NCBI GenBank assembly: GCA_028714475.1
Contig: JAQTNC010000001.1
Span: forward strand, 22,678 to 86,677
Reading direction: 5' to 3'
Source of the DNA: Patescibacteria group bacterium
GTDB taxonomy: Bacteria; Patescibacteriota; Patescibacteriia; SG8-24
DNA: 64,000 nt
Shown here: positions 1 to 53,928 of the stretch, one piece after another
Position numbering within the stretch: position 1 is the first letter of the stretch
Layout: the number at the start of each line of letters is the position of its first letter
Translations under genes and position numbers: made by a program
The notes under the pieces: generated by a model
The model's input: the letters and a program-made list of their open reading frames with translations, nothing else
Told to the model about the DNA's origin: nothing
The model's database searches: none

Positions 1-857
1 CGGTCGCGGAGCGCGGTTTCCATACCGATTGTTAGACGATGAGAGGAAGCACGCAGCTCGGCGGCCACGTCGCGCCGGTCCGGCACGAGCAGTTCCGCGG
101 CGTTGGTCGGCGTCGAGGCGCGCACGTCGGCGGCATAATCGGTCAGCGTCTCGTCGCGCTCGTGGCCCACGCCGACGACGACCGGCTGGCGCGAGCCAAA
201 CACCGCCCGCGCCACGTCCTCGGAATTGAATGCGGCCAAATCCTCAAGCGAACCGCCGCCGCGCACGAGCACGACGACCTCGGCCAACTCCGGATGACGG
301 TTGAAATGCTGGAAGGCCGAAACAATCTGTTCGGCCGCGTCACGGCCCTGCACCTGAACGTCAACATGATTGATGGCCAAGCCGCCCCAGCGGTTGCCGA
401 GAATGCGCAGGAAATCGCCGTAGGCCGCCGACTCGCCGGAAGCGATGAGACCGATGCGTTCAGGAAACCGCGGCAAAGGCCGCTTGCGCTCGGTCGCGAA
501 AAGGCCCTCCGCCGTGAGTTTGGCGCGCATGAGCTCGAAAGCACGGCGTAACGCGCCCTCCCCCACCGGCTCCGCCTTCTCCACGTTCAACGAAAACTTG
601 CCGCTCTTCGCGTGAACCTTCGGGTGCCCGTACGCGCGCACGCGCAAGCCGTCCTCAAGCGGCTGACGCATTTGCCAAACCGTCGAGAAGCAACTGACAA
701 CGGCCTCCTCATCCTTGAGCAGGAACCAAATCCACTTGCCCTGCGAGACGCGGTATTCCGCGACCTCACCTTCCACCCAAACGCCTTCTGGAAAAACCGC
801 CGTGGTCAAGGCGGTATTCAGGAATTCCACGAATTGCGAGACGGTGAAGGGATTCAT
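1..857 (-). CDS. xseA: exodeoxyribonuclease VII large subunit, N-terminal ~285 aa (gene runs off the window start)
   Basis: ATG on the minus strand at 857..855. Translation MNPFTVSQFVEFLNTALTTAVFPEGVWVEGEVAEYRVSQGKWIWFLLKDEE...LVRGGGSLEDLAAFNSEDVARAVFGSRQPVVVGVGHERDETLTDYAADVRASTPT matches the XseA OB-fold N-terminus and catalytic core. The frame is open to position 1. It is missing from the ORF track because it has no in-window stop. Confidence 0.8.
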   Translation of the reverse strand, partial: MNPFTVSQFVEFLNTALTTAVFPEGVWVEGEVAEYRVSQGKWIWFLLKDEEAVVSCFSTVWQMRQPLEDGLRVRAYGHPKVHAKSGKFSLNVEKAEPVGEGALRRAFELMRAKLTAEGLFATERKRPLPRFPERIGLIASGESAAYGDFLRILGNRWGGLAINHVDVQVQGRDAAEQIVSAFQHFNRHPELAEVVVLVRGGGSLEDLAAFNSEDVARAVFGSRQPVVVGVGHERDETLTDYAADVRASTPTNAAELLVPDRRDVAAELRASSHRLTIGMETALRD

Positions 858-862
858 GGGGG

Positions 863-933
863 TACGGAGAGACAGAGTGACAGAGAGACAGAGATGGGGG
901 GGTTCCGTAAATTCTTTTCTCTATGTCTCTATA
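863..933. repeat. gagacagag-word palindromic element
   Basis: gagagacagagtgacagagagacagagatggggg...ttctctatgtctctatatcac. Confidence 0.6.
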
Positions 934-2004
934 TCACTTCTTCTTAGCCTGCGTTTTCGTCTTTTCCGGCGTCGGATCAACAGGCGGCGTAGGAGGCACA
1001 AAAACGTACGTCTCCCCGTTCAGCGACCAGCCGGGTCGCGGTCCGCCACCGACTATGAATATGTAACGGTCAGCGGCGGCGGCACCTTCGGCATGAAGCG
1101 GTTGGGGCATTTCCCCGATCATGATCCATGCATGCCGAGCAACATCATAAGCGTCCACTTTGCCGGAGACGCCGGAACCGGTCAAGCCCCCGAAAACGAA
1201 CACCCGGCCGTCAAGATAAGCCATGGCAAAATCGCCTCGGCGCGAAGGCATGGGCATGGCCGCGTCCCAGGACGCTTCCACGTCATTGAACAGCTCGGCC
1301 TTGGATAGGCTTTCGACGGTCGTGCTGGCCAAGCCGCCGAAGACCAGGAAACTGTCGTCAATCGCTGCCGCCCCGCCCCGATCCCGCACGGTCAGCATCT
1401 CTTCGCCGCTCATCCAGTCGCCGCTCCCAGGATCGTAAACCCAGTGCGAGCTCAAGGCACCGGTGACGCCACGGCCGCCGAAAAGATGCATCTTGCCGTC
1501 GTGCACGGCTACGGCCGCGCCACCGATTGATTTCGGGATCGGTTTGCCTTCGGACCAGCGGTCGGTTTGCGGGTCATAGATGTAAAGGGAATCCGTCGGG
1601 CGTGACGCCCAGCCGAACAAACCGCCAGCGGCATAAAGCTTGCCGCCGATTTCGGCCAAGGCGACATGGTTTCGGGGCTGGGGCAGCGGCGCAACGATGG
1701 TCCAACGACCGGTGCGCACGTCCAGACATTCGACCGTGGCGACGGTGCGGTACCAGGCGTCCACGCCGCCGACAACACAAACGCGGCCGGCGACGGTCGC
1801 GGCCGCGACGCCAGTACGCGGAGTCGGCATGGGGTCGGCCTGGAGCCAGTAGCCTTCCGTGCGGGTGGGCGTCGGCGCGCCGAAAACGTACGGCGCTAAA
1901 CCCGGCCGCTCCGGCTCCAAGCCGAGTGGATCAAAACCGCGAACGTACCAGAGGTAGCCGTAGACTGCCGCGGCCAGCAGGAGGATGTATATGACTTTCT
2001 TCAT
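934..2004 (-). CDS. Kelch-repeat beta-propeller protein with N-terminal membrane anchor
   Basis: 356-aa ORF with ATG start. N-terminal hydrophobic helix MKKVIYILLLAAAVYGYLW. Repeated GG..(Y/F)..GG and W..(I/V)..(M/L)P motifs typical of Kelch blades (VVGGVDAWY, LYAAGGLFGW, MHLFGGRG, FLVFGG, VFVFGGL, IFIVGGG). Confidence 0.7.
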   Translation of the reverse strand: MKKVIYILLLAAAVYGYLWYVRGFDPLGLEPERPGLAPYVFGAPTPTRTEGYWLQADPMPTPRTGVAAATVAGRVCVVGGVDAWYRTVATVECLDVRTGRWTIVAPLPQPRNHVALAEIGGKLYAAGGLFGWASRPTDSLYIYDPQTDRWSEGKPIPKSIGGAAVAVHDGKMHLFGGRGVTGALSSHWVYDPGSGDWMSGEEMLTVRDRGGAAAIDDSFLVFGGLASTTVESLSKAELFNDVEASWDAAMPMPSRRGDFAMAYLDGRVFVFGGLTGSGVSGKVDAYDVARHAWIMIGEMPQPLHAEGAAAADRYIFIVGGGPRPGWSLNGETYVFVPPTPPVDPTPEKTKTQAKKK

Positions 2005-2035
2005 GATAATACTAAATAAGCGGCGGTGGACCGAA

Positions 2036-2115
2036 GAGCTGAAGATAGGGAGTTCTGAAGTGCTGGAGTCTTCAGTACTTCAGAACTTCAGCACTTCCAC
2101 GCTTCAGCACTCCAA
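2036..2115. repeat. ctgaagtgctggag-family imperfect palindromic intergenic element
   Basis: gttctgaagtgctggagtcttcagtacttcagaacttcagcacttccacgcttcagcactcc is built from ctgaag/ctggag words and their complements. Related copies lie at 11556-11621, 23062-23145 and 28966-29100. Confidence 0.7.
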
Positions 2116-2119
2116 TCTC

Positions 2120-3001
2120 CTACGGCTGCAAAACGTCCTCCGTCCGGCCGTCAATGCTGATGACGACATCACGAACCTCCGGGAACTGCTTGAGCGTCTG
2201 GATGATCTGCGACCGAATGGCAATCACGCGACAGGAACCGCCGATGCCTTTCTCCAGGCTCGGCTTGAAGTCCGCCGTCACGACGCCGCTGCCGTCCGTC
2301 GTCACGGACTCGAGCCCAGCGCCAGCCGGCAAGGAGGTGAAATAGCCCGAATTTTTTTCCGCGTCGGTCGGGCCCTTGAGCAGTTCCGTCAGGGCCTGAT
2401 GATAAATTGATCCCTTTGACGACACGACACGCTCGACCGACCGCACCACGGAACAATCCGTGCCGCCGTCAGCCGTAGTGCCGAAAAAAACGCGGATGGA
2501 CACGGTGTCCAACTGGACGAACGAGACGTGCCGCACCTCGACCGGCGACAGCTGGCCGTCATGCTCATAGGAAACCTCGACCGTGCCGTTGCCCTGAACG
2601 GTCGCGGGCAAGGCGAAGGACTGGCTGAAGCGGCCGAAGGCGGACGACTGGCTTTCGCGGATGACCGAAACGCGCGTGGCGGCGATGACGGCACCCGTCT
2701 CGTCCTTGACGGTGACAGTCAGGTCGCCGATGTCCGTTCGCGCCCGACCGGCCGCGTCAAAAGACAGGGACAGCCTTGCCCCTTCGGCCGGGGTTTCCAA
2801 AACCACCGCCGAGACCGGATCCGTCGCCCCTGAAGACGACGGCGAGGCATCCTTGGGCGGCACGGCCGGCAGGGCGGTTTGATCGTTCTTGACGCTGGAC
2901 AAGGCCGGTTCCGGCTGGATAGTCGGAGCGGTTAGGCGCCCAACAGAAAATCCGGCGACGGCCACGATGACCACGAGAAGGATGAAAACGATTTTTTTCA
3001 T
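2120..3001 (-). CDS. GerMN-domain protein, membrane anchored
   Basis: Internal ATG at 3001 begins MKKIVFILLVVIVAVAGF (signal/anchor). C-terminal region FFGTTADGGTDCSVVRSVERVV...YHQALTELLKGPT...VISIDG resembles the GerMN/Gmad2 fold. The upstream 75 codons of the track ORF are arginine-rich and lack a signal, so they are probably not translated. Confidence 0.6.
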   Translation of the reverse strand: MKKIVFILLVVIVAVAGFSVGRLTAPTIQPEPALSSVKNDQTALPAVPPKDASPSSSGATDPVSAVVLETPAEGARLSLSFDAAGRARTDIGDLTVTVKDETGAVIAATRVSVIRESQSSAFGRFSQSFALPATVQGNGTVEVSYEHDGQLSPVEVRHVSFVQLDTVSIRVFFGTTADGGTDCSVVRSVERVVSSKGSIYHQALTELLKGPTDAEKNSGYFTSLPAGAGLESVTTDGSGVVTADFKPSLEKGIGGSCRVIAIRSQIIQTLKQFPEVRDVVISIDGRTEDVLQP

Positions 3002-3119
3002 GGGTTTAACATCAAACTTCCAACGAATGGATGATACCAGATTACGGGGCGTGAGCGAAGTTCGGCCGACGTCCCTTTGACAGCAAAAGGTTATCAAAAT
3101 CCAGGGTAAAAACCCTGGT

Positions 3120-3128
3120 TGTGGATAA
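3120..3128 (-). promoter_or_regulatory. perfect DnaA-box 9-mer (TTATCCACA on the minus strand)
   Basis: TGTGGATAA, preceded by the hairpin CCAGGGtaaaaaCCCTGG. About 120 nt upstream of the GerMN gene start. Confidence 0.5.
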
Positions 3129-3155
3129 GAAACGTTAATAACAACTAGACGGACT

Positions 3156-6100
3156 CTAAACGCTCGCCTGACCACGGCGCAACACAATGGCGAGCCCGAT
3201 ACCCAAGGCGACGACCACGAGGGCAATCGCGCCGATGACGTACCAGCGCATCATCTGATTCATCGGTTCCTCCACCGCGACCACGGAAACCGGCTTGAAG
3301 TAATCCTGTTCGCTCACGGCCTGGGCTTCGGCGACGAAGAACGACAGCGGCGCGCTTTTTGCCTGAATCTTGCCGGTATCGTCGGTGACGGCGACATAGG
3401 CGGTATGTTCGCCGTCGGTGAGCGAATCCGCCAGCTCATACTCCCAGTTGCCGCTTTCGTCCGCCGTCGTCGTGAGGACGAGCGGCAGGTAGGAGTAGAT
3501 GAAGATGGTCACTGTCTCGCCGGGCCGAGCCTTGCCCTGAAAGGTCGTTTGCGGCGGCGCTTCGCCCTCTGCTGGCGTGACGTTCGCGCTCTCCACGGCC
3601 ATGTCCGCCGATTCCTCGCCCGCAACCCGCGGCTGTTCCATCGGCACGCCGGAAACGATGGCCGCGTCCACTGGCGTCACCTTGATCAGTGACTCACCCA
3701 ACTTGCCCGGACCGAGCGGGTTGTAGCCGTTCTTCACCTCGTCGCTGTCGCTGTAGCCGTCGCCATCCGTGTCGGACTTGAGCGGGTCGGCCCCCCACCG
3801 CTTCTCCACGTCATCCGGCAAGCCGTCGCCATCGGAATCAATCATGAGCACGGCGGGCACGGCTTCATGGTTCGTCGTGGCGTCCGTCCTCACCAAGGCC
3901 GGCGACGCCTGAACCTTGAAGGTGGTCTCCTTGTTCGACTGTAACGGGATGTTCTCCGCGAGAATCGTCGCGGTCGTGGCGGCCGTCGGTTTCTCGGGCG
4001 GCATTTCGGTTGGCGGGGCGGCCGGTGTTTCGCCCGGTTCGGGCTCGGCCGGCTTTTCCGGACGCTGGAACTTGATGACCGTGCCGACGAGCGGCGTTAC
4101 GGCCGTCTGCAACTCATTGAGTTTGGTAGCCGACAGGAGGCCGACGGTCTGCTGGGCCACCTGATCCGGCGTCAAATCACGGCTGACCTGACCGAGATAA
4201 GCGACGCACTCCTCCTTGGTGATGATGCCGGCTTGGCGGCACTTGTCGTTGCGGCTGCGGAATGCCAGCCATTCGTCGCACCGGTTGGCGGGGATGTTGT
4301 TCTTCACGCATTCGGCGTCCAGACGGCTGACGGCATCAGTGATCTGCGCCGAGAGCGGCGCGGTCTCGAAAGGCTTCGTCCCGGTCGGCGTTTCCTGCGC
4401 GGCGGCGCGGATGGCTTCCGGGGGGAGGACAACGACGGTCGAGAGCGGCACTGGCGGCGGAACCGGTGGGATGACGGTGCCCGGCTTCTCCTGGGTCGGC
4501 GGCAACTGGTTGGCGACCAGCGTATAGACCGGCAGGCTGCTCGCGCGCCGACTGCCGGAAACAGCCATGACGACGACGCCGTAGCGACCGTCGGCACTCA
4601 CGGTCGTGTCCCACAGGCCCACCCAACGCCTGGATTCCGGCGCGAAGATGGCGGGCTTATCCTGCTGGAAAGAGCCGTCCGTCGCCTTGATGAGGAAGGT
4701 CACGGACTCCGGCCCGCCCGTGACTTCGGCCGCGAGCAGCGCCACACCCTTGATCGTGTACGGCAAGCCCACCACCTTGGCGGCGAGCGGCGGAAGTGGG
4801 GCTTCCGGCGTTCCGGTGGGCGGCGCGGTCGACGGAATTTCGGTGGTCGGCGGCGTGGAAACCAGATTGTCTATCTTGACGTCAACCGACGCACTTTCGC
4901 CGGCAAACTGCCCATTCACCATGGCCTTGGCCCGGACGCGATACGCGCCGTTAGGCATATGGGCGGTATCCACGGTCGCGCTCCACACTCCGTCTGTCCC
5001 AGGTATGGCGGGCGTCACGAAGGGCGCTGAACTCGCGGTCGCAACCGGCTCAAGGATGAATTGCACGGAACCCGGCTGGCCCTCGACTTCCGCCCGGAAA
5101 ACGACGCTGCCGGAAAGCGTCGCCCCGTTGCCCGGAGCGCCAAGGGTGACCTTGAGCGCGGTCGGCGGCGACGCAGCCTCATTGGTCACGTAAACGCCGA
5201 TGAGTTCGCTCTCGACCCAGTCCGTGCCGAAACGCGCCCTGGCTTTCACCTGATATTGGCCATTGGCCGCGGCCAGGGTGTCCCAAACGGCGTTCCAGAC
5301 CAAACCGGCGGCATCGCTCATGGCCGGCCGCGTGAGCGGTTGCGCGTTGGCGCTGCCGGTGATCGCAAAGACAACCTCGTCAGCCTTGCGGCTCACAGTT
5401 GCGGACAGGCTGGCGGACTGTCGTAGAATCGCGCCGGAAAGCGGCATCGTCACGACCGGGGCGTTCGGCGGCGGCGTCGAGGTCGTCTCGTACCGGAATG
5501 GCCGTGGGCCAGCCGCGGCCAGACGATTGTTGTTGGCGTCGTAGGCCTCAACCGTCAAATCCAGATCCGCGGCGGTCGTGATGGACGGTGTCCATGACGC
5601 TGACCAAGTGCTGTTCGTCTTGGTGCCGTTAACGGAGAAAAGCGGGGTGGCCGTGGCGGAAGCGCCACGCGGATAGACGCGGAAGAGGAGGCGCGAAAGG
5701 CCGCTGCCGGAAGCCGTCGCGGACAGGTTGACGGGACTCACGCGCAACACGACATCGTTCGCCGGGGCAAGAATCTGCACCGTGACCGTGGTGGTTTGAC
5801 CGGGCGCGAAATTGAACGTCCGCGGCCCCTCGCTGTTCAGGCGAACGGATGCCGAATCCAAGGCGTATACATAAAGGTCAAACAAGCCCGTCGTGCCGGT
5901 CGGCGGCGTCCAGTTGGCGGTCCAAGTGTTGGCCGCGGTGGCCGCGACCGTACCGGGGATTTCGGCGAAAGGTGTGCCGGTCGGCGGAACGCCCGGCGGG
6001 AATATTCGGAACTTGACCTGGCTCACGCCGGTGCCGGTGACCGTGGCGGACATCGGCATGGTGGCCGACGAGATGGTGGCGTTCACCGCTGGCGCGCCGA

Positions 6101-10241: not shown

Positions 10242-10277
10242 ATGTTTGTTGTTAGGCTCTAGTCACTAGCCACTAGT

Positions 10278-11555
10278 TTACCGGACTGCTCGCTCTCGCT
10301 CAAGGGCACTTTCGGTATAGACGTTGGCCGCGTTCCAGAGCAGCCAGCCGCTTGCGCCTTGCTCGTCGCTCGCGCGAATCTGCAGCCGCACCTTGTTCGC
10401 GTCATACGTCGCGCCCATGTCGAAATCCTGCAGCCACGGTCGGTAAGTCGCGAGCTTCGCTTCCTCCCCTTTTGCCTCGGCTTCGGCCTTCATCGTCGCA
10501 ATCAGCTTCTGCCCGCGAATCATGTTGTCGCGGACGACCTCGTAGGGATGCTCGGCGGGATTGGCAAAACCTTGGAAACCGTCCGCGTAGTGCGACGGAT
10601 ACACCATCGGCGAGATGAAATCGAAATGCGGCAGGGCGTCGCGCAACATCTGACCAATGTTGAGGTCGTATTCATGCTGCCACATCGTGAGTCCGAAGAG
10701 ATCCACCGAAATCGGAATGCCTTGCTTCTGCCGCAGCTGCAGATCCAGATAGGCGAAGAACTCGCCCAAGACCTCGTGCTTGGGACGCTCACCGTCATAA
10801 AAGGGATACTGCAGGCCTTTCAGGTTGCCGTCGGACGGGAAACGGATGTAATCGAACTGAACCTCGTCGAAGCCGGATTCATAGGCCTCGCGGGCGATGG
10901 CGGCGTTGTATTCCCAGACCTCCTGGCTGGCCGGGTCGAGCCAGCGGATGCCGCGGTTGTCGCGCCAGACGGCGCCGCCCTGGCGGACCGCGAGCTTGGG
11001 CCGCACCGCCACGAGCGCCGAATCCTGGAAGACCGGCACGCGCGCGATGAGGTACAGGCCCTCGGCGTGGAGGCGCTTGGACAATTCGCGCAGGTCGCCA
11101 AGGGACGGCTTTTTGGCGACCGCCACGTTCAGCGCTTCGTCGCGCGGTTTGAAGGCCAACTCATACTTGGAATCCTTGAGGTCAATGACGAGCGCGTTGA
11201 TTTCCGTGCGCTTGGCGATGCCCAGGACCCGTTCAAGCACGATCTTGTTCCCGTACCCGTCGGAGGTCAGGTACAGGCCTTTCACCTTTTCCGGCAACGG
11301 CTGATGTTCGACGCCGGGGATGATGGGCGGCGGCAGACCCGGGCCGTCGTCGGTCCGCACCGCGCCCCAGTCAGGGCGGAACGATTCAAGGGCTATCTGA
11401 CGCTGATAGAACAGGGTCGCGTCAAAATACGCCATGGCCGGCAGGGCGGCCAGAAAAACGATCAGCGCTCCGTGACGCAAAATGAAATCGCGAATTTTGG
11501 CGAGTGCTGCGGCGCGGCGTTCGGCGGGCGTAGGTTCATCGTGGAAGGGCCACAT
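10278..11555 (-). CDS. putative glycoside hydrolase (TIM-barrel, DUF4015-like), N-terminal TM anchor
   Basis: 425 aa. TM helix ALIVFLAALPAMAYF. Core ...GLYLTSDGYGN...INALVIDLKD...EGLYLIARVPVFQD...FDEVQFDYIRFPSDG... resembles the putative glycosyl hydrolase family found next to polysaccharide genes. Confidence 0.55.
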   Translation of the reverse strand: MWPFHDEPTPAERRAAALAKIRDFILRHGALIVFLAALPAMAYFDATLFYQRQIALESFRPDWGAVRTDDGPGLPPPIIPGVEHQPLPEKVKGLYLTSDGYGNKIVLERVLGIAKRTEINALVIDLKDSKYELAFKPRDEALNVAVAKKPSLGDLRELSKRLHAEGLYLIARVPVFQDSALVAVRPKLAVRQGGAVWRDNRGIRWLDPASQEVWEYNAAIAREAYESGFDEVQFDYIRFPSDGNLKGLQYPFYDGERPKHEVLGEFFAYLDLQLRQKQGIPISVDLFGLTMWQHEYDLNIGQMLRDALPHFDFISPMVYPSHYADGFQGFANPAEHPYEVVRDNMIRGQKLIATMKAEAEAKGEEAKLATYRPWLQDFDMGATYDANKVRLQIRASDEQGASGWLLWNAANVYTESALERERAVR

Positions 11556-11621
11556 AGGAGTACTGGAGTACTGAAGTGCTGGAGTGCTGGAGTATCTTCA
11601 GTACTTCAGCACTTCCCAGCT
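11556..11621. repeat. ctgaagtgctggag-family imperfect palindromic intergenic element
   Basis: ggagtactggagtactgaagtgctggagtgctggagtatcttcagtacttcagcacttcccagcttcagaac. Confidence 0.7.
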
Positions 11622-12977
11622 TCAGAACTTCTCAAATCCTTTCCTCCCCAGCAACTTATACATGTGCTTCTTGCCGGCCTCCACGCCGGGTTGGTCATAG
11701 GCATTGACGTCGAGGAGTTCGCCGGCGACGGCCGTGGCGATCTGGAAGAAATTGACGAGCGCGCCGACGGCTTCGGGGCTGACGCGCGGGACGAAGACAG
11801 TGCCGTTCGGCCGGCCATTTTCGGTAAGCGCCAGACTGGTCGCCGCGCGTTCGGCGTGGAGGATTTCCCCGAGCCGATGGCCGGCCATGTAGGCCGTGCC
11901 TTCGATGTCCGGGTAGGGGTTCGGCAGGCGGAAATCCGCGTCCGGACTCTCGACCTCGATGAAGGTCAAGGTCTTGTCGAACGGCCCCTCATTATATAAC
12001 TGAACCTGTGAGTGCTGGTCGGTCGCGCCGAGCGCGGCGACCGGGGTAAAACCGTGGTTAACGACCTTGCCGTGGCGGTCGAGCCTCTTGCCGAGCGACT
12101 CGGCCCAGAGCTGACGGAACCAGGAACCGAACTCGCGGAGGCGTTCGCCGTAAGGCATGAGCACGGTGATGTGCTGACTGCGGCGGACATAGCCGTCGTG
12201 CTGAAGGCCGGCGAACATGAGCGGGCCGTTGTCCATCGTCTTGGCCGCGGCGAACTCGTCGCGCACGGCGCGACAGCCGACGACGAGGCGCCGCACGGGG
12301 ATGCCGGCGCAAGCCGCCGGAAACAGTCCGACCGGCGTGAGCACGGAGAATCGTCCGCCGATGTCAGCGGGCACCGGCAGGGTGCGGTAACCTTCGCGAT
12401 CAGCGATCTTGCGCAGCGTTCCTTTTTCCGTGTCAGTCGTGGCGATGACGTGGCGGGCGTGCCGATTCACGCCCACGGCTTTCACCAAACGGTCGCGAAG
12501 CAGAACGAACGCGCTCATCGGCTCGATGGTGTCGCCGGATTTGGAAATGACATTGATGGCCGTCTTGCGCCAATCAAGGTCGCGAAGCAGCGCGGCCATC
12601 TCGTCCGGATCAGTGTTCGCGCCGATGAAACGGATCTCCATCCCCTTCCCCGCCGGCTTCAGTGCCTTGACGAGCATCCGCGCGCCCAAGTCCGAGCCGC
12701 CGATGCCGATGACGACGAGCGTCTTGAACTCGCGCCCAACGGTCTTGGCCATCGCCTCGACGGCCTTCAAGTCAGCGGTTCGTTCCGGAATCGCCATGAA
12801 CCCGAGCTGGCCGGAGCGCCATTGCTTGATGACCGCCGCCCGGACAGGCTCCAACCGACGGGCCAAATCAATCAAGTCGGCCTTGGGCATCATCATGTTG
12901 CCGCGTTCCGCCGTCATGCGCGAATAGTCGAAGCGAACGAAAGGCTTTACTTCCGCCTTTTTCGTGGTTTTAGGCAT
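11622..12977 (-). CDS. pgi: glucose-6-phosphate isomerase (short ~450-aa type)
   Basis: Motifs VVIGIGGSDLGARM, SKSGDTIEP, GGRFSVL..VGL, and the C-terminus YDQPGVEAGKK. Confidence 0.9.
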   Translation of the reverse strand: MPKTTKKAEVKPFVRFDYSRMTAERGNMMMPKADLIDLARRLEPVRAAVIKQWRSGQLGFMAIPERTADLKAVEAMAKTVGREFKTLVVIGIGGSDLGARMLVKALKPAGKGMEIRFIGANTDPDEMAALLRDLDWRKTAINVISKSGDTIEPMSAFVLLRDRLVKAVGVNRHARHVIATTDTEKGTLRKIADREGYRTLPVPADIGGRFSVLTPVGLFPAACAGIPVRRLVVGCRAVRDEFAAAKTMDNGPLMFAGLQHDGYVRRSQHITVLMPYGERLREFGSWFRQLWAESLGKRLDRHGKVVNHGFTPVAALGATDQHSQVQLYNEGPFDKTLTFIEVESPDADFRLPNPYPDIEGTAYMAGHRLGEILHAERAATSLALTENGRPNGTVFVPRVSPEAVGALVNFFQIATAVAGELLDVNAYDQPGVEAGKKHMYKLLGRKGFEKF

Positions 12978-18673: not shown

Positions 18674-19903
18674 TTACTCGTAACGCAACGACTCAATGGC
18701 ATCTAGCCGTGCGGCGGCCATGGCCGGACCGACGCCGAAGCCCAAGCCGATGCCGATGGAGACAAACAGGGAAACGGCGACGGCGACGCCGGAAATCATG
18801 TAGTTCCAGGCCAAACCGTAATACGCGGCGATGAATCCGACTCCGTAAGCGATGAGCGCGCCCAAAATCAGCCCGATTATTCCGCCGGTGAAGGCGATGA
18901 ACGAACTCTCGAGCAGGAACTGGATGAGGATGCGCCGCGGCTTGGCGCCAAGCGCCTTCCGGAGGCCGATCTCGCGGGTCCGTTCGCGCACGGCGACATA
19001 CATGATGTTCATGATGTTGATGCCGCCGACCAGAAGCGAGATAGCGGTCACGAGCACGAGAAAAGCGTTGATGGCGGTGGTAACGCTGCTCAAGATGCTC
19101 AAGGCCTGATTGACTGAACGCACCGAGAAGTCATCATTGCTCGCATCCTTGATGTGGTGCCGCCGCCGCAAGGTCGTCTCGATTTCCGACTTGAGCCACT
19201 CGATGTTATCGGCGGAATCAGCTTTGACGGTCGCGGCATTGATGTGATTGATGCCAAGGAGGCTCTTCTGCACCGTGGTCGAGGGAATGAACACGGCCTT
19301 GTCGAGCCCCTGACCGAGGGTGCTTCCCTTCTCGGCCAGGACGCCGATCACCTGAAAGCTGACATCCTTGATGCGCACGCTCTGTCCGATCAAACGGCTC
19401 CCGGAAGGGTTCAGGTCAGCCGCTACCTTGTAGCCGAGCACCACGACGCGAGAGTAGGATTCCACGTCGCTCACTCCGAAAAAACGACCGTCCTCCAGCT
19501 TGGCGTCCTGAAGAACGGCCATCTCCTCGCTCGTCCCATTCACGCTCGTGATGAACGATTTCTGGCCGTAGCTTATGGCAGCCGACGTCGAGACCATAGG
19601 CGAACCGGCGATGACGTGCGGCAGCTTCCGCAAGGCGCGATAATCCTTTTCCGTAAGCGTCGTCGTGATGACGCCCATGACCGAGGCCGGCGGTGCGTCT
19701 TCCGAGCTGCCACCCGGCATAACATTGATGAGGTTGGTGCCCAGCGCGGTAATCTGTCCCATGATCAGGTCCTGGGCGCTTTTTCCCACCGAAGAAACCG
19801 CCACCACCGACATGACGCCGATGATGACGCCAAGCATGGTCAAGACCGTACGGGTCTTGGCCGCCTGAAGGGTTCGCAGGGAATAAATCGCGTCCTTGAG
19901 CAT
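18674..19903 (-). CDS. ABC transporter permease, MacB/FtsX type (paralog of the downstream permease)
   Basis: Begins MLKDAIYSLRTLQAAKTRTVLTMLGVIIGV and ends with a C-terminal FtsX region. A 4-nt gap separates it from the next permease. Confidence 0.85.
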   Translation of the reverse strand: MLKDAIYSLRTLQAAKTRTVLTMLGVIIGVMSVVAVSSVGKSAQDLIMGQITALGTNLINVMPGGSSEDAPPASVMGVITTTLTEKDYRALRKLPHVIAGSPMVSTSAAISYGQKSFITSVNGTSEEMAVLQDAKLEDGRFFGVSDVESYSRVVVLGYKVAADLNPSGSRLIGQSVRIKDVSFQVIGVLAEKGSTLGQGLDKAVFIPSTTVQKSLLGINHINAATVKADSADNIEWLKSEIETTLRRRHHIKDASNDDFSVRSVNQALSILSSVTTAINAFLVLVTAISLLVGGINIMNIMYVAVRERTREIGLRKALGAKPRRILIQFLLESSFIAFTGGIIGLILGALIAYGVGFIAAYYGLAWNYMISGVAVAVSLFVSIGIGLGFGVGPAMAAARLDAIESLRYE

Positions 19904-19904
19904 C

Positions 19905-19998
19905 GGGGTGAAGGTTGATACTAGGCACTAGGCTCTAGGTTCTAGAGGTAACTAGTGCCAAGTGCCAAGTGCCTAGTGCCTAGTGTCTAGTGCCTAGT
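19905..19998. repeat. ctaggcactag / ctagtgcctag palindromic element inside the ABC efflux operon (between ATPase and permease genes)
   Basis: ctaggcactaggctctaggttctagaggtaactagtgccaagtgccaagtgcctagtgcctagtgtctagtgcctagtgtctagg. Low GC relative to the flanks. A shorter relative ctagtcactagccactag sits at 10255-10275. Confidence 0.75.
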
Positions 19999-20000
19999 GT

Positions 20001-20678
20001 CTAGGACACCACTCGCCCATCGCGTATGCGCACGATGCGCTCGGCGCGTTCGGCGACGTCCGGCTCATGCGTCACCATGACGATGGTGTTGCCGTCCTTG
20101 TGCAGGCCGCGGATGATTTCCATCACCTCGTCCGACGTCTTGGTGTCGAGATTGCCGGTCGGCTCGTCGGCCAAGATGAATGACGGGTCGTTGATGAGCG
20201 CCCGGGCGATGGCCGCGCGCTGCTGTTCGCCGCCGGACATCTGGTTCGGGTTGGCGTCGATGCGGTGGCTCAAGCCGACCTTCTCGATGAGCATGCGGGC
20301 GCGCTCGCGAATGAGTATCGGGTCAACCGCGGTGTTCGAATATTCCGTCGGCAAAAGCACATTTTCCAGCACCGAGGTGCGCGGCAGGAGGTTGTAGGCC
20401 TGGAAGATGAAGCCGAGTTTGCTGTTCCTGATGTCGGCGCGCTGGTCCTCGGTCAACTGGCTGGCGTCCTTGCCCTCGAACCAATACTTGCCGGAGGTCG
20501 GAGACAACATGAAGCCAAGCGCGTACATGAGCGTGGACTTGCCGCATCCGGACGGCCCCATGATGGCGATAAACTCCCCTTTTTTGATATCCAAATCAAT
20601 ACCCGCCAGCGCCCGCACGATACGGTCGCCCTGCGTGTATTCCTTGGTCAGCTGTTCGAGGCGGATAAGGCTGGGCAT
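20001..20678 (-). CDS. ABC transporter ATP-binding protein (MacB/LolD-like)
   Basis: ATG at 20678 begins [14 protein letters not shown]. Walker [10 protein letters not shown], signature MSGGEQQR, Walker [13 protein letters not shown]. Confidence 0.9.
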
Positions 20679-20790
20679 AGGATGAGCGGCCTTAAACGTA
20701 GCGGCGGGGCTTGCCCCCGCACCACAATAGACGAAAGGCAATCATCATAACGGATATTTCGTTTCGGTGATGGCGGGTCAAGCCCGCCCG

Positions 20791-23061: not shown

Positions 23062-23145
23062 CAGAATGCCGGAGTTCTGGAGTGCTGAAGTGCTGGAGTC
23101 TTCAGCACTCCAGCACTTCCCCGCCCCAGCACTATTACATTAGGT
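23062..23145. repeat. ctgaagtgctggag-family imperfect palindromic intergenic element
   Basis: ggagttctggagtgctgaagtgctggagtcttcagcactccagcacttcc. Confidence 0.7.
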
Positions 23146-23195: not shown

Positions 23196-23439
23196 GCCGT
23201 TTCAATCCCGACCTAATGAAGCCTCCCCGGGCTCACGCCCGGGGTATCTAACGCCCCATCCTGTTTCATTCACCGTAGCCCACTGCCCCCTACGCCCTCC
23301 GGGCTTCGGGGGATTCACGCGTCAGGAACCCCGGGCTGACGCCCGGGGTATTCGGCGGAGGTGAACAAAAAGCGGGGCCGGAGCGACATGGTCAGAAGAC
23401 CAAGCATCTCCAGCCCCGAGGGCTAAGGACCGAACTGCG

Positions 23440-28949: not shown

Positions 28950-29030
28950 AGAAGTCAGTGCGGGAGCGCAGAAGTACTGAAGTGCTGAAGAGGGAAAAGC
29001 TTGACAACTGTTGAACGGCCCAACAACTTC

Positions 29031-29094
29031 TCCAGCACTCCAGCACTCCAGCACTCCAGCACTCCAGCACTCCAGCACTCCAGCACTCCAGCAC
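29031..29094. repeat. (CCAGCACT)8 perfect 8-bp tandem repeat inside a ctgaagtgctggag-family palindromic element
   Basis: Eight uninterrupted CCAGCACT units. The upstream partner agtactgaagtgctgaag lies at 28972-28991. The track ORFs 28527..29078 and 28831..29094 (VLECWSAG repeats) are translations of this repeat. Confidence 0.9.
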
Positions 29095-29174
29095 TTCCTA
29101 CTGGTTCGCCGTCGTTAGCCATGATAATCTTAGGTTAGCGGACGGTTCACGCCTTTAGAGCCGCCCCCATCCGC

Positions 29175-30038: not shown

Positions 30039-30094
30039 TTTCAAGCACGTCATCAATAACGAAAAACGCTGGTTCCATGACCAGCGTTTTTAAA

Positions 30095-30185
30095 TGCCAA
30101 GTTGTGGAGTAATGGAGTCGTGGAGTAGTGAAGCGACTATGAAAAACAAAATCGACTTTTCTACTTCACGACTTTACAACTTAAC
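30095..30185. repeat. gtggagtagtgaag-word palindromic element
   Basis: gttgtggagtaatggagtcgtggagtagtgaagcgact...agtcgacttttctacttcacgactttacaac. Confidence 0.6.
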
Positions 30186-30197
30186 GACTCCAACCCC

Positions 30198-36302: not shown

Positions 36303-36345
36303 AAAGCCCCCGCCGCAAACACGGCGGGGGTTAAAAATTAGTTTG
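36303..36345 (+). terminator. rho-independent terminator
   Basis: AAAAGCCCCCGCCGcaaacaCGGCGGGGGTTAAAAATTAGTTT. Confidence 0.8.
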
Positions 36346-36420
36346 AAGTTTTTAGTTGGTAGTTTGTAGTTGCCGGCCAGTTTGTCCTAAAACTACAGAC
36401 CGCAAACTACCAACTAAAAC
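36340..36420. repeat. tagttggtagtttg / caaactaccaacta palindromic element
   Basis: The 17-bp perfect arms ttttagttggtagtttg ... caaactaccaactaaaa flank a 24-nt loop. Sits directly after a canonical terminator. Confidence 0.75.
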
Positions 36421-36532
36421 CATCCGTCCGCCTTGACCATATTGCCTTTAGCTGATTAGATTCCCGCAACGGCCTTTACAATTTGCCGCCAAACTCAAAC
36501 CCCAACGTCAGCCCCAACCAAGGAGCTACGCC

Positions 36533-38356
36533 ATGTGGAAACATGTTCTCGGCTATTTCCGGCAGTTCGCCGTGCTCAAGGGCATGCGGCGCGAGTACTG
36601 GGGCGTCCAGTCCATCAACTTCCTGGATTGCCTCTATGGCTTCGCCTTCGGGACCGTCTCCACCATCTTCATGTCGCAGACCCTCGGATTCAGCGACATC
36701 GGGGCGGGTGCGGCCCTGTCGTGGCTCGGCATCTTCACCAGCGTCTTCCTCTTCGCCTCGGGCCCCATCGTGGACCACTTCGGCCTCAAGAAGTCGCTGT
36801 TCCTGTCGATCTTCTTCGTCATCCTGATGCGCGGCGGCATGGCCCTGTGCGCCTTCTGGCCGCTCCTGCCACATCACGAAGATATCTACGCGTGGTTCGC
36901 GGGAATCGCCGGCCTGACCGGCGACGGCAGCTGGTTCCATCACGTCGCCTGGCGACCGTACAGCTACCTCGCCTTCCTGGCCCTCGGCGGCCTGCCCGTC
37001 TCGGTGAAGAACACGGCCTACCACATCGGGAACAAGCGGTTCACCACCGCCGCATCCCAGTCCGCGGGCTTCAACCTGTGGTACATCATCATGAACGTCT
37101 CCGCGGTCGTCGCGGGCCTCGTGGTCGACCTGTTCCGCACGGATTGGCACCTGCACTACGGCTGGTTCATCGTCCTCGGCGTCGGCACGGCCGTCCTCTC
37201 GCTCCTCTCGACTTGGTTGCTCATCAAAGACGAGCGCCCGGCCGAAGAGCGAGACAGACCGCAGACAAAAAATGCGCTGCCGCCCCCGTCAGAAAATGAA
37301 GCTGGTTCGCCCGACCTAGGGAAGGTCACGGTATGGCTGAAACTGTTGAGGTTGCTCCCAGTTTGGAGCCTCGTTCTGCTAACGATGACTTGGCTCGGCC
37401 TAGTCGTTGCCAGCGGTTACGTTTGGCGTCATACCCCGCGCTTCATCCAAGTGCCGCTCCTGTACGTCTGGCGCAAGCTGGTCGTCGTGGCGCGCTACAC
37501 GCGAAAAGTCTGCCGAGAACCGTCCTTCTGGCGAATGATGGCGACTGTCAGCAGTTACGTTTGGCGTCACACCCCGCGCTTCATCCGCGTGCCGCTCCTG
37601 TTCGTCTGGCGAAAACTGGTCATCGTTTGGCGCTACACGCGAAAAGTCTGCCGAGAGCCATCCTTCTGGCGAATGATGGCAGCCGTCACCCTGAATCTCG
37701 GGGTCAGCTCGGTCTTCATCTACTGGTCGATGATCTCGCCCAAGTACTGGGACCGCACCATCGGGCCGGACGCGGCCATCGGCAAGCTGTCGGCCATCAA
37801 CCCGGTCATCATCGTCGTCGGTCTCGTCCTGCTGGTGCCGATCATCAACAAGTTCAAGACCTTCACGATGCTGACCTGGGGCTCGTTCATCTCGGCCGGG
37901 AGCCTCATCCCGCTCGTCATCCCGTGGTACTGGGTCAGCTCCGATCCGCGGACGGCCTACTACGCGACGAGCATCGTCTCGATGGTGGTGTTCTCGTTCG
38001 GCGAGATGATGTTCTCCCCGCGCCTCTCGCAGTACATCCTCGCCGTGGCCCCGGTCGGTCAGGAGGGAATCTATTCCTCCTTCGCCGCCCTGCCGTCGTT
38101 CGTGAGATCGACGATCGTCGGGTTCACGTCCGGCGTGATGCTCACGAGGTGGTGTCCGGAAACGCGGGTGCTCCACGGCGTCGAGAAACCTCTCCGCGAG
38201 GTCATCGCCGCTCGGATCCTGCCCTACTGGGACACGCCCGAGGCGATGTGGCTCATCCTGACGGTAGCCGCCATCGTCGGACCCATCCTCATGGTGGTCC
38301 TGCACAAGTGGTTCGTGAGCGGGATGCGTCACGACACGACGGTCGCGGCAAATTGA
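36533..38356 (+). CDS. MFS transporter with a 47-aa tandem duplication in the central loop
   Basis: 12-TM MFS topology. The duplicated segment is SGYVWRHTPRFIQVPLLYVWRKLVVVARYTRKVCREPSFWRMMATV / SSYVWRHTPRFIRVPLLFVWRKLVIVWRYTRKVCREPSFWRMMAAV (37412-37552 / 37553-37693). Confidence 0.8.
   Translation: MWKHVLGYFRQFAVLKGMRREYWGVQSINFLDCLYGFAFGTVSTIFMSQTLGFSDIGAGAALSWLGIFTSVFLFASGPIVDHFGLKKSLFLSIFFVILMRGGMALCAFWPLLPHHEDIYAWFAGIAGLTGDGSWFHHVAWRPYSYLAFLALGGLPVSVKNTAYHIGNKRFTTAASQSAGFNLWYIIMNVSAVVAGLVVDLFRTDWHLHYGWFIVLGVGTAVLSLLSTWLLIKDERPAEERDRPQTKNALPPPSENEAGSPDLGKVTVWLKLLRLLPVWSLVLLTMTWLGLVVASGYVWRHTPRFIQVPLLYVWRKLVVVARYTRKVCREPSFWRMMATVSSYVWRHTPRFIRVPLLFVWRKLVIVWRYTRKVCREPSFWRMMAAVTLNLGVSSVFIYWSMISPKYWDRTIGPDAAIGKLSAINPVIIVVGLVLLVPIINKFKTFTMLTWGSFISAGSLIPLVIPWYWVSSDPRTAYYATSIVSMVVFSFGEMMFSPRLSQYILAVAPVGQEGIYSSFAALPSFVRSTIVGFTSGVMLTRWCPETRVLHGVEKPLREVIAARILPYWDTPEAMWLILTVAAIVGPILMVVLHKWFVSGMRHDTTVAAN
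37412..37693 (+). repeat. 141-bp x2 in-frame tandem duplication within the MFS transporter gene
   Basis: 37412-37552 and 37553-37693 are about 90% identical at nucleotide level and encode 47-aa duplicated loop segments. Confidence 0.85.
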
Positions 38357-40317: not shown

Positions 40318-40374
40318 CGTCTACCCGTGCCGCTGGCGGCCCCTCACCCTTGAGGCGGCCGCCACTGTTTTTAC
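40318..40374 (+). terminator. terminator of the small membrane-protein gene, immediately preceding repeat D1
   Basis: GGCGGCCcctcacccttgaGGCGGCCGCC + ACTGTTTTTA. Confidence 0.6.
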
Positions 40375-40745
40375 GGAATATATTGTGCGAAGCACACTTT
40401 GCGGACAAGATGACTTCATCTCGCGAGGCCACCCTGTACCGTAATGGTACAGGGTTCCGCAGGCCGAGCGCATACTATATATAGGTTGGTGGGACGAAGC
40501 CGCGGGTGACGCGGAGCGGGGCGACCGACGGGCGGACCCGGTTCCGGAGACAATCGCTCGCGCAATTACGCATCCAGCGCGAGCGCTGTCGACGGAAGCG
40601 GGCCCGACCGGCGGGAGCACGGGTTGGTGACTTGCATGTGGAATCGCGGCAGGACCCGCGGCCGGTTGTTTCTGAGCCTCTGCCTTCACGAGAACGACAT
40701 AATCAATAAACCCAGGCACAAAGCCCGGGCTTGTTGTTTATATAT
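40375..40745. repeat. ~370-bp structured repeat D1 (between a plus-gene terminator and the metK stop)
   Basis: Blocks shared with D2: attgtgcgaagcacactttgcgga; gcaggccgagcgcatac; gccgcgggtgacgcggagcgggg ... gcggcaggacccgcggc (a long-range pair GCCGCGGG/CCCGCGGC). The variable inserts are perfect hairpins (CCCTGTACCgtaatGGTACAGGG). Confidence 0.6.
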
Positions 40746-44223: not shown

Positions 44224-44291
44224 CAAATCTACCCGGCAGATTTGACGCGAAAACTGCCGGGTAGATTTGGAGTCAAAACTGCCGGGTAGAT
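44224..44291. promoter_or_regulatory. three-box repeat array (one 15-bp box inverted relative to two direct copies), candidate operator or attenuator
   Basis: AAATCTACCCGGCAG atttgacgcgaaaa CTGCCGGGTAGATTT ggagtcaaaa CTGCCGGGTAGATT. Box 1 is the exact reverse complement of boxes 2 and 3. It lies 77 nt upstream of the gene at 44368. Confidence 0.55.
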
Positions 44292-44367
44292 TCCGACCGT
44301 CGCAGACCGCTTGACGTCCTCCCCCGCCCTGCTACGGTAAAAATTACCCCCACCCAAGGAGGTCATC

Positions 44368-53925: not shown

Positions 53926-53928
53926 CCA

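Follow-up and report, generated by a model that had tools for sequence, protein, structure and literature searches.

It has been noticed for decades that bacterial gene ends can carry heptamer and octamer repeats, which have no accepted function. The closest described repeats are the convergent pairs of G-rich heptamers of Xanthomonas (GGGAATC) and Nostoc (GGGGAYT) (Rehm et al. 2015, PMC4692102). Approximately 90% of these repeats are intergenic; most lie no more than 50 bp past a stop codon, which some overlap, and few lie between divergent ORFs. In many cases, two arrays converge and are able to form a stem-loop; length and sequence vary between close relatives, and each Xanthomonas genome carries 70-75 convergent pairs. 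The repeats are transcribed, their function is given as unknown, and slippage is cited as an explanation (PMC4692102). Long simple-sequence repeats with units of 5-11 nt were described in prokaryotes by Mrazek and co-workers in 2007, as cited in PMC4692102 and PMC4679880; in this literature, as cited, unit length has been proposed to relate to how much DNA the polymerase holds and, through this, to slippage.

Direct repeats of the heptamer TAACTGA are found in marine Beggiatoaceae, some cyanobacteria, and Bacteroidetes (PMC4679880). These intergenic arrays can overlap the upstream stop codon, provide stop codons in three frames, and usually precede genes without a recognisable ribosome-binding site. 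They consist of one fixed word, are almost exclusively direct (1 of 170 sets is inverted), and have no predicted hairpin.

The REP/BIME elements (and REPINs) of gammaproteobacteria are extragenic imperfect palindromes located at 3ʹ ends and between convergent genes, with none in promoters. REPs are units of 20-40 bp that fall into one family or a few families of near-identical members, bear a GTAG or CGTC tag, and have a linked RAYT transposase. Among the roles proposed for them is mRNA stabilisation (PMC3733652, PMC3116915).

Here, we describe repeats of the Xanthomonas/Nostoc kind in a metagenome-assembled genome (MAG) of an Uhrbacteria-like member of the Patescibacteria. The window, that is, the whole stretch of DNA analysed, is 64 kb of this one genome, and element counts refer to it unless other genomes are named. 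Small and compact genomes are usual in the Patescibacteria (candidate phyla radiation, CPR), and long repeats of such a kind have been linked to large genomes.

Architecture and words of the elements

The window contains 12 elements, 11 full and 1 half, at a density of about 1 per 5 kb. Tandem arrays of 7- or 8-nt units make up the arms of each full element, which is an imperfect hairpin; in every arm, Tandem Repeats Finder detected a period of 7 or 8. The first array is G/T/A-rich and the second is its C/A/T-rich complement, so an imperfect hairpin of 20-40 bp can form from either strand. A first-pass annotation had named palindromes built from longer words at several of these positions; all of the named sites exist, and the longer words resolve into one or two 7- or 8-nt units. 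The elements, with repeat units and positions from Tandem Repeats Finder, are as follows.

Element A, 863-936: G-rich arm (GAGACAGA/GTGACAGA)n at 863-899, C/T-rich arm at 908-936, unit GAGAGACA at 867; occupies the whole spacer from the Kelch-repeat gene stop (934) to the xseA start (857), both genes on the minus strand.
Element B, 2033-2119: CTGRAGTDCT family; G-rich arm 2033-2069, C-rich arm 2070-2119, unit CTTCAGAA at 2070; adjoins the Germane-domain gene stop codon (2120), 28 nt from the Kelch gene start (2004).
Element L (half), 10255-10277: (CTAGTCA/CTAGCCA) x2.7, CTAGTCA at 10259; immediately 3ʹ of the DUF4015 gene stop (10278) and 13 nt ahead of the PPIase start (10241).
Element C, 11556-11636: CTGRAGTDCT family; (GGAGTACT/GAAGTGCT)n at 11556-11594 and (CTTCAGNA)n at 11596-11636, unit GGAGTACT at 11557; the G-rich arm begins immediately beside the DUF4015 start codon (11553-11555), and the C-rich arm extends over the last PGI codons, stop codon (11622-11624) included.
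Element F, 19918-20004: period 7; (CTAGGCN)n at 19918-19948 and (CTAGTGY)n at 19952-20004, units CTAGGCT at 19921 and CTAGTGC at 19952; region 19904-20000 separates the ABC ATPase (20001-20741, minus strand) from the MacB/FtsX permease (18674-19903, minus strand).
Element D, 23068-23135: CTGRAGTDCT family; G-rich arm 23068-23099, C-rich arm 23100-23135, unit TGCTGGAG at 23067; lies at the edge of a 381-nt intergenic region, starting 9 nt from the MarR ATG, which ends at 23058.
Element E, 28957-29100: CTGRAGTDCT family, asymmetric; short G-rich arm 28957-28993 with unit GAAGTACT at 28971, expanded arm (CTCCAGCA) x8.2 at 29030-29095 with 100% identical units; begins 8 nt past the TSP3-repeat gene stop (28949, plus strand).
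Element G, 30101-30197: (TGGAGTNN)n at 30101-30135 and C-rich arm 30150-30197, repeats at 30105 and 30163; between convergent genes, adjoining the AI-2E transporter stop (30198) and beside a compact bidirectional terminator (30062-30091).
Element H, 36339-36424: period 7; (TAGTTKG)n at 36339-36372 and (CMAACTA)n at 36392-36424, unit TAGTTTG at 36339; right behind a compact GC-rich hairpin (36307-36330), with the MFS gene start 108 nt further.
Element I, 48131-48205: (GAGTGGCA)n at 48131-48153 and (TGCMACTA)n at 48160-48205, repeats at 48134 and 48173; spans the NUDIX gene stop (48194) to the UvrD start (48130), the C-rich arm overlapping the NUDIX 3ʹ end.
Element J, 53845-53928: (TGAGTTGT)n at 53845-53876, repeat at 53848, and C/A-rich arm 53884-53928; occupies the spacer from the nucleotidyl-transferase gene stop (53929) to the YceG start (53837).
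Element K, 59044-59133: period 7; (GTAGCTA/GTAGTTA)n at 59044-59078 and (ACTACTC/GCTACTA)n at 59096-59133, units GTAGCTA at 59045 and ACTACTC at 59098; between convergent genes, adjoining the Fpg stop (59134) and beside a compact bidirectional terminator (~59015-59043).

Element L had been listed as a short relative; it does exist, but as half an element that lacks a clear partner arm and folds no better than shuffles.

The paired periodic design exceeds what chance would give. Period-7/8 units occupy both arms in 8 of the 16 strong hairpins of the window, while 15 Markov-1 simulations gave zero to two hairpins each and no periodic ones. Sense-strand stems have predicted stabilities of -19 to -49 kcal/mol. 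Against composition-only shuffles, seven of the 12 elements have fold z scores of -4 to -9, among them B (-4.6 and -6.3), J (-6), and K (-8.4), whose 32-nt arms are 88% complementary; weaker values (0 to -3) were obtained for elements A, E, and I and for half element L. Under dinucleotide-preserving shuffles, z reached -4.3 for element C (-4.25, sense strand) and -4.9 for element F, none of 200 shuffles folding equally well in either case, and ranged from -3.5 to -4.9 across C, F, and three elements of relatives. As the first-pass annotation had observed, the elements are lower in GC (0.37-0.56) than the window (~0.60). Rfam and tRNA scans of the window returned no match, and the units run head-to-tail without the spacers of a CRISPR or TIGR array.

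Like the Xanthomonas/Nostoc repeats, the elements consist of tandem units of about 7 nt that are G-rich on one strand, are arranged as convergent array pairs with the G-rich array before the C-rich one, and are intergenic, near stop codons, and depleted between divergent ORFs (PMC4692102). Unlike them, the units here are 7 or 8 nt long and the host is a Patescibacteria MAG. Moreover, one motif per genome is the rule there, whereas the window alone holds at least five word groups, and the G3-4 tracts that form G-quadruplexes in vitro there are missing from the units here (the G-runs in elements A and I lie outside the arrays). Quadruplexes therefore cannot explain the features that the two sets share. 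Over-represented, intergenic heptamer units are likewise a property of long simple-sequence repeats and cyanobacterial STRR heptamers as cited; however, those are direct arrays, whereas the inverted G-then-C pairs are obligatory here. As far as we found in the cited long-repeat literature, neither this pairing nor a many-word vocabulary within one genome is described. From the TAACTGA repeats, the elements differ in having other words and in being inverted pairs.

The first-pass annotation considered the words unique to each site. In fact, a (G/A/T)AGT core is common to them, with a phasing of 7-8 nt in approximately 12 of 14 distinct elements from five CPR genomes; the G-rich arms of A and F lack it. 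One word set recurs at four loci (2036, 11556, 23062, and 28966), with 18 CTGRAG matches against 0 expected, and these loci are elements B, C, D, and E of the CTGRAGTDCT family. Additionally, the element G word TGGAGTNN (30095) is a relative of this family, F and L have CTAG-based words in common, and B, C, and D share the irregular unit CACTTCCnnGC, and this sharing suggests copying between loci and not purely local birth. CTGAAG and CTGGAG resemble type IIS restriction sites, CAGAG resembles a type III site, GCTGGAG is Chi-like, and the polarity of the arms resembles telomere fusion, all of which we take to be coincidence. Supplying stop codons in all three frames was rejected as a general purpose of the G-rich arm because the GGAGTACT arrays contain no stop codon.

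Location, folding, and possible roles

Every one of the 12 elements is either downstream of a gene or between two convergent genes, and none is found in the five divergent promoter regions of the window, which bears out the REP-like location proposed for them. They occur within operons, between convergent genes, and beside ordinary terminators, with arms that adjoin stop codons. As had been noticed, one lies inside an efflux operon: element F separates the ABC ATPase and MacB permease genes of an HlyD-ABC-MacB-MacB operon, and the TAG stop of the ABC gene is the first CTAG word. However, the proposal that almost every gene 3ʹ end carries such a palindrome overstated their frequency, since only ~12 of ~50 gene ends, or about a quarter, do so and at least 10 others have compact GC-rich terminators only. 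A missing Shine-Dalgarno sequence in the gene after an element was rejected as a special trait because most window genes lack one.

If transcribed, an element would form a long stem-loop in which the stop codon upstream and the start codon downstream come together, and it would then most likely act as a passive obstacle for 3ʹ exonucleases or as a processing site, rather than as a terminator. No U-tract follows the 3ʹ arm, and the terminator-like sites of the window include none of the 12 elements; the elements are thus not canonical terminators. The compact G+C-rich stem with a U-tract that defines a Rho-independent terminator is not what they present, and the T-rich tails seen on the plus strand of three of 11 window elements are on the antisense strand there.

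These locations raise the possibility that the elements are RNA stem-loops selected for 3ʹ exonuclease protection, as RNase III sites, or for read-through attenuation, tuning operon expression in the manner of the REP in malEFG or the internal terminators of ABC-transporter operons. Judged from sequence, we consider such a role possible though rather unlikely. The exclusive placement at 3ʹ ends, the stability of the sense-strand stems, and the contact of the arms with the stop codon and the next start codon are what it would predict, and precedents come from the transcribed Xanthomonas repeats (PMC4692102) and from the known internal hairpins controlling ABC-operon stoichiometry (PMC9045158). 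Yet the 3ʹ arm is without a U-tract, and a compact terminator beside three elements already does the job. Moreover, one arm is able to expand alone, as in element E, and the same operon junctions in relatives work with short spacers. The sense strand also folds no better than the antisense strand: antisense RNA is the more stable in nine of 12 elements, often by a small margin, and the mismatches are without bias towards G-U-compatible changes, a negative result for selection on sense-strand RNA. There is no sign that the RNA fold is under selection, and we therefore regard the elements as mostly tolerated by-products with a possible secondary use.

Relatives, other phyla, and independent assemblies

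The first-pass annotation asked whether related genomes lack such elements entirely. They do not; syntenic relatives carry their own, mostly at different junctions and with different words. The same architecture is present in L002, L003, and L127, so the style is not genome-specific as had been supposed. In L003, the junction orthologous to the element B site also has a heptamer word palindrome, and at one gene junction the words differ among relatives. Two relatives, L004 and L124, have arrays without a partner arm; a metagenome scan with a palindrome-junction pattern gave one match, the 19-unit direct array of L124. The closest relatives found (best UvrD 69% identical) have no elements on two short contigs. 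Other junctions are empty in relatives: the ABC-to-MacB spacer is 97 nt here versus 5-8 nt in L002 and L003, and the gene preceding UvrD, at the element I site, is 5-10 nt away. These short spacers are evidence for gain in the present genome. Conversely, a hairpin of some kind, differing in sequence, is kept at the Germane-to-Kelch and iPGM-to-Fpg junctions in several lineages; this would fit the selected stem-loop role and counts against an origin by slippage and doubling.

Outside the Patescibacteria, the octamers CTGGAGTG, CTGGAGTA, CTGAAGTG, and TGGAGTAA recur in Verrucomicrobia, Planctomycetota, Deltaproteobacteria, Bacteroidota, and Acidobacteriota, as well as in two cultured gammaproteobacteria, and the isolate genomes Pokkaliibacter and Budvicia show the same architecture. 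The repeat type, already reported in Xanthomonas and little studied, is thus also present in many other phyla. Genome collections were scanned with GRAGTDCTGRAGTDCTGRAG, and no Patescibacteria are among the matches listed. Among these matches, the loci are flanked by co-directional genes in 21 cases, convergent genes in 6, and divergent genes in 5; co-directional minus-strand cases usually lie no more than 40 nt from the upstream stop. Words change along single arrays, and T-rich tails follow 3 of 38 elements, the same as controls, again among the matches listed.

The order of the arms is the most regular feature. The 5ʹ arm is the G-rich arm in all 10 informative window elements, G exceeds C on it in 10 of the 11 full ones, and the G-rich array comes first in 38 of the 38 array pairs listed from other phyla, the opposite order occurring in none. 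With RNA folding parameters, G-rich arms alone self-fold better than their complements (sum -131 vs -48 kcal/mol), although this asymmetry is missing for the words of elements A, G, H, and J. Unpaired arrays are G-rich on the coding strand in 18-48 cases versus 6-21, which is suggestive and confounded by undetected partner arms and ORF-calling bias.

The recurrence of words could also reflect mobility. The elements might be decayed miniature mobile elements, REP/RAYT-like or MITE-like, with the CTGRAGTDCT group the youngest and copies of the other, seemingly unique families outside the window; we judge this improbable. One word set at four loci, the shared irregular unit, the CTAG-based words of F and L, the small part of the genome that the window represents, and the apparent insertion between ABC and MacB are in its favour. 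Nevertheless, the REP-like dispersal claimed for the ctgaag/ctggag pair holds only as recurrence and not as mobility, since copies are just 66-75% identical. No terminal motif or common end tag is visible, GTAG occurring only inside some words, and the arms are tandem arrays, unlike those of REP/BIME elements. No target-site duplication of the MITE kind separates filled from empty junctions, in a comparison limited by ~55% amino-acid identity. A Pfam scan of the ~50 window proteins found no transposase and no RAYT (Y1 HUH transposase). Furthermore, the same words appear in unrelated phyla, as convergence or a general process would explain more readily than a single element. A phage link was rejected because viral contigs contained the pattern no more often than scrambled controls (13 matches vs 3 and 12).

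The shared (G/A/T)AGT core and the GGAGT octamers found across phyla hint, at the sequence level, at a sequence-specific constraint or factor. HutP and TRAP bind NAG repeats. By analogy with TRAP and HutP, and with cold-shock proteins on heptamers, the elements could be binding arrays for a nucleic-acid-binding protein reading a (G/A/T)AGT or GGAGT core every 7-8 nt, with the complementary arm as a competitor. The phasing of the core in the five CPR genomes and the recurrence of GGAGT-type octamers agree with such arrays, as does the one heptamer per CspB protein cited in PMC4679880. The idea is nonetheless quite improbable, given that the core was spotted post hoc, is missing from the G-rich arm of A and F, and has no candidate protein identified for it. 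In addition, the loci of other phyla were picked with a GGAGT-containing pattern, so the GGAGT cores there are not independent evidence.

An assembly or amplification artefact, a concern already raised in the first-pass annotation, is hardly credible, even though the sequence comes from a MAG and assemblers struggle with short tandem repeats. An independent Logan assembly of run SRR22315509 reproduces elements A and B exactly (99.97% identity over 3,852 bp), and the edge of the element E array is recovered in a second run, SRR22315508, where the Logan contig breaks inside the array. Reproduction of A, B, and the E edge in two runs counts against a single-assembler artefact, and isolate genomes share the architecture.

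Origin and significance

We regard the elements as a many-word variant of the same kind of object as the Xanthomonas convergent G-rich heptamer pairs. The account we favour, and to which we give about an even chance, is that they are slippage-prone long simple-sequence repeats that have been doubled into palindromes and are tolerated, perhaps used, as stem-loops 3ʹ of stop codons. Every step of this model is inferred from sequence. First, replication slippage would amplify a short unit. Next, a strand-switch or snap-back event would double the array into an inverted copy, probably on the G/T-rich strand, which self-pairs better. Each arm would then drift through GC-to-AT mutation and additional gain and loss of units.

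The local slippage that the first-pass annotation had put forward is supported by the perfect eight-copy array on only one arm of element E, by the partnerless arrays of L004 and L124, by the different words at an orthologous junction, and by the shifts of word within arrays of other phyla. Inverted duplication is supported by unit-order irregularities that are mirrored between the arms in G, H, J, and K. Among 55 mismatches between the arms, 36 place G against A or T and only 9 involve C, with no excess of transitions; these differences look like GC-to-AT decay. Two further observations stand against the slippage and doubling model: the polarity, at 38:0 plus 10:0, would be a very strict rule if mutational bias were its sole cause, and slippage does not explain the AGT core or the GGAGT octamers recurring across phyla.

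The window shows such repeats at high density in an unexpected host, a candidate-phyla-radiation bacterium. As the units are unable to form G-quadruplexes, unit length, post-stop location, and G-then-C pairing need another explanation, and strict polarity together with octamer reuse in distant phyla offers a handle for testing mutational versus functional origins. For annotation, hairpins that fill operon junctions and overlap stop codons should not be labelled terminators. More speculatively, and in our estimate unlikely, the elements could belong to a pan-bacterial class of hairpin repeats that generate themselves and follow a single rule, with the G-rich array ahead of its complement (48 to 0 in this sample). 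The polarity could come from a specific mutational process, for example snap-back synthesis on a G/T-rich nascent strand, or from a conserved cellular factor reading a (G/A/T)AGT or GGAGT core phased every 7-8 nt. If such a class exists, the G-quadruplex explanation for Xanthomonas would be incidental, and the class would be a general, unnamed feature of bacterial gene ends.

Architecture of the hairpin repeats

The window contains 12 hairpin repeats, 11 of them full elements, labelled here A to L:

863-936: element A
2033-2119: element B
11556-11636: element C
23068-23135: element D
28957-29100: element E
19918-20004: element F
30101-30197: element G
36339-36424: element H
48131-48205: element I
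53845-53928: element J
59044-59133: element K
10255-10277: L, a half element

All sites named in the first-pass annotation are present, and the elements rank among the longest inverted repeats of the window according to an inverted-repeat tool. A feature left unstated in that annotation is that every arm is itself built of 7- or 8-nt units in tandem, as identified by Tandem Repeats Finder, and 18 of the 20 period-7/8 arrays found in the window by this program belong to elements. Our own hairpin scan recovered 16 strong hairpins, in eight of which both arms have a period of 7 or 8; each of 15 Markov-1 simulations of the window gave 0 to 2 hairpins, none of them periodic. Fold energies are 4–9 SD better than those of composition-only shuffles in seven of the 12 elements, the excess being weaker in A, E, I, and the half element L. 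Elements C and F, together with three elements of relatives, fold 3.5–4.9 SD better than dinucleotide-preserving shuffles.

The elements are real. The Logan assembly of run SRR22315509 matches window positions 387-4238 at 99.97%, elements A and B included, and a contig of run SRR22315508 starts within the (CTCCAGCA)n array of element E, which together rule out an artefact of one assembler.

Gene ends, relatives, and tests of RNA function

The window has a G+C content of approximately 60%, and Uhrbacteria are among the best named matches to its proteins. Most genes lie on the minus strand (gene map backed by Pfam scans, ~50 ORFs), and neither Rfam at the gathering threshold nor ARAGORN gave a match anywhere in the window. 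The Shine-Dalgarno motif is missing from most window genes, so its absence after elements is uninformative. Several genes have a TATAAT-like box only 3–10 nt before the ATG (for example, upstream of the starts at 35599, 63301, 31259, and 27831); together with the general lack of Shine-Dalgarno motifs, this suggests that the host organism has many leaderless or very short-leader mRNAs.

Nine of the 12 elements sit between co-directional genes and usually take up the entire spacer there. On the sense RNA of these cases, the G-rich arm begins at the upstream stop codon or a few bases from it (in F and C, the stop codon is the first word), and the next start codon lies 0–28 nt beyond the end of the C-rich arm. 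Elements G and K sit between convergent genes, each adjoining a compact bidirectional terminator; H comes after a compact hairpin; and none of the five divergent intergenic regions in the window holds an element. The first-pass claim that almost every gene 3ʹ end carries such a palindrome was overstated, as the share is approximately one quarter and many gene ends carry compact terminators alone. Its placement of one element inside an efflux operon proved accurate: F separates the ABC ATPase gene from the MacB permease gene in a HlyD-ABC-MacB-MacB operon.

Contigs of syntenic relatives keep the gene order at 51–69% protein identity in two series, HlyD-ABC-MacB-MacB ... PGI-DUF4015-PPIase ... 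Germane-Kelch-XseA and iPGM-iPGM-Fpg ... YceG-DUF2207-NUDIX ... UvrD ... MetK.

Spacer lengths at two junctions in relatives and in the window
Junction; relatives; window
ABC to MacB; 5-8 nt; 97 nt
Gene preceding UvrD; 5-10 nt; 63 nt

Elements of this kind also occur in three relatives (loci L002, L003, and L127), and an unpaired array in two more (L004 and L005). A purine-arm/pyrimidine-arm heptamer palindrome directly follows a MacB stop codon in L002; an element with different words occupies the Germane-to-Kelch junction of L003, the junction of element B; and in L127, an element fills the iPGM-to-Fpg spacer, at which the window has a compact hairpin. The array of L004 and L005 is (GGAGTACT)n, a word also used in the window. 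Element density is approximately 1 per 20 kb in relatives versus 1 per 5 kb in the window. Locus L127 also has, at 5560-5662, period 7-8 arrays (GCGGAAA, AAAGCCGG, GAAGTCGG) within what is called as the C-terminus of a pilin-like gene; these repeats either code for a low-complexity tail or form a repeat element across which the gene call was extended.

The terminator-like sites of the window include none of the 12 elements, and T-rich tails on the sense strand are missing from the window elements. Sense-strand folding is no better than antisense, the antisense RNA being the more stable one in nine of the 12 elements, often only slightly so. Aligned to their reverse-complemented partner arms, the G-rich arms show 55 mismatches in 301 positions, of which 36 are G versus A or T and only nine involve C, with no transition excess. 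This is not the pattern expected of selection for G–U-tolerant pairing in mRNA; it matches the outcome expected of GC-to-AT decay in one arm or the other, and the lower G+C content of the elements agrees with such decay.

Other repeats and structures in the window are as follows:

40350-40720 and 45680-46010, plus strand: two copies of a ~330-nt non-coding sequence, 75% identical overall
44224-44292: a near-perfect palindrome (AATCTACCCGGCAGATTT ... AAACTGCCGGGTAGATT; 33-nt arms, 85% complementary) that also consists of 2.8 copies of a 25-nt unit
23225-23348: a G+C-rich hairpin (CCCCGGGCTSACGCCCGGGG) in two copies ~95 nt apart
37411-37680: an in-frame tandem duplication of 138 bp, or 46 codons, in an MFS transporter gene (2.0 copies, 90% identical)

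The ~330-nt copies share conserved blocks, including ATTGTGCGAAGCACACTTTGCGGA, CCGCAGGCCGAGCGCATAC, GCCGCGGGTGACGCGGAGCGGGG, and GCGGCAGGACCCGCGGC, with hairpins of differing sequence at the same position between blocks and a terminator-like hairpin at the end of each copy. Rfam gave no credible match, and no homologue occurs in the loci examined from relatives; the sequence looks like an undescribed structured RNA present as two paralogues. The palindrome at 44224-44292 is intergenic, follows a 704-aa gene, and is unlike the 7–8-nt elements in style; it could be an operator or terminator. The hairpins at 23225-23348 lie within an unusually long 381-nt intergenic region adjoining element D and may represent a small RNA or a regulatory region upstream of a MarR gene.

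Polarity and occurrence in other phyla

In 10 of the 11 full elements, whichever strand is read, G is abundant and C scarce in the 5ʹ arm, with the opposite composition in the 3ʹ arm; F is neutral. Periodic arms are absent from all window hairpins with a C-rich 5ʹ arm. Most units also contain a (G/A/T)AGT core phased at 7–8 nt, which, as it was noticed after the fact, is a lead. The polarity might come from snap-back on the G/T-rich strand, the stronger self-folder in the case of some words, or from selection against a transcript in which a C-rich, G-poor arm comes first and is exposed.

A scan of a genome collection for two and a half consecutive CTGRAG-type units (the family of B, C, D, and E) returned at least 118 loci in many phyla; these were chosen with one word, from which its prevalence cannot be judged, and the choice was blind to polarity. 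Among the matches listed, at least about two-thirds of loci have true arrays of the CTGRAG octamer family (three or more copies), including two cultured gammaproteobacteria. In the flanks of the listed loci (0.86 Mb), periods of 7 and 8 predominate among all tandem repeats, and the vocabulary extends to many further words. Adjacent array pairs of opposite G/C skew at these loci run G-rich then C-rich in 38 cases and the reverse in 0. Most of the ORF pairs around them are co-directional or convergent, co-directional minus-strand cases usually have the element 40 nt or less from the upstream stop, and T-tracts are not enriched at the elements. Viral contigs showed no enrichment over scrambled controls.

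The sole metagenome match to the palindrome-junction pattern is JGI contig Ga0209550_10041701 (L124), in which 19 CACTSAAG / TACTGAAG octamers are directly repeated at 320-470 beside a gene end. Loci L010, L013, L065, L068, and L123 (MAGs of Deltaproteobacteria and Syntrophobacterales) carry (CAGGTTT / CAGGTGT)n followed by (CTGACAC / CTGAAAC)n. This CAGGTTT-type family is common to several genomes, again with the G-then-C hairpin architecture; thus, families besides the searched CTGRAG word recur between genomes.

Origin and class of the elements

Slippage is suggested by element E, which is asymmetric, with a perfect 8.2-copy array in one arm and approximately three units in the other. Unit irregularities are mirrored between the arms of G, H, J, and K (for example, the TTGG-then-TTTG order in H and the GCAAG break in K), which points to inverted duplication of the entire arm rather than two independent arrays. 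Elements B, C, D, and E have a word set and the irregular unit CACTTCCnnGC in common at an identity of only 66–75%. The first-pass idea of a recurring, possibly mobile family holds for the shared words, but nothing points to recent mobility; what makes the four a family is their vocabulary and perhaps common descent.

We prefer an account in which an array would grow by slippage, undergo inverted duplication, decay in its arms, and persist nowhere but downstream of stop codons. An effect of the RNA stem-loop, if any, would be secondary. Slippage, mirroring, decay, and location appear to be recorded in the repeats themselves; the duplication mechanism and any function of the elements we infer. 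The strict polarity and the shared core lie outside the reach of this account.

A literature search found no report of such repeats in the candidate phyla radiation. Their closest precedent is the GGGAATC arrays of Xanthomonas, which number approximately 186 per genome and are ~90% intergenic, most lying 50 bp or less after a stop codon and only 7–8% between divergent ORFs (PMC4692102). Two convergent arrays able to form a stem-loop occur in 70–75 cases; the arrays are transcribed and have no assigned function, and the idea that the heptamer equals the DNA segment held by polymerase has been cited (PMC4692102). TAACTGA heptamer direct repeats overlap stop codons and precede genes without a ribosome-binding site (PMC4679880). 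The window elements belong to a known, unexplained kind, namely G-rich 7–8-nt repeat arrays in convergent pairs at gene ends. What is new in the window is the Patescibacteria host, the use of several words in one genome, and units incapable of forming G-quadruplexes.
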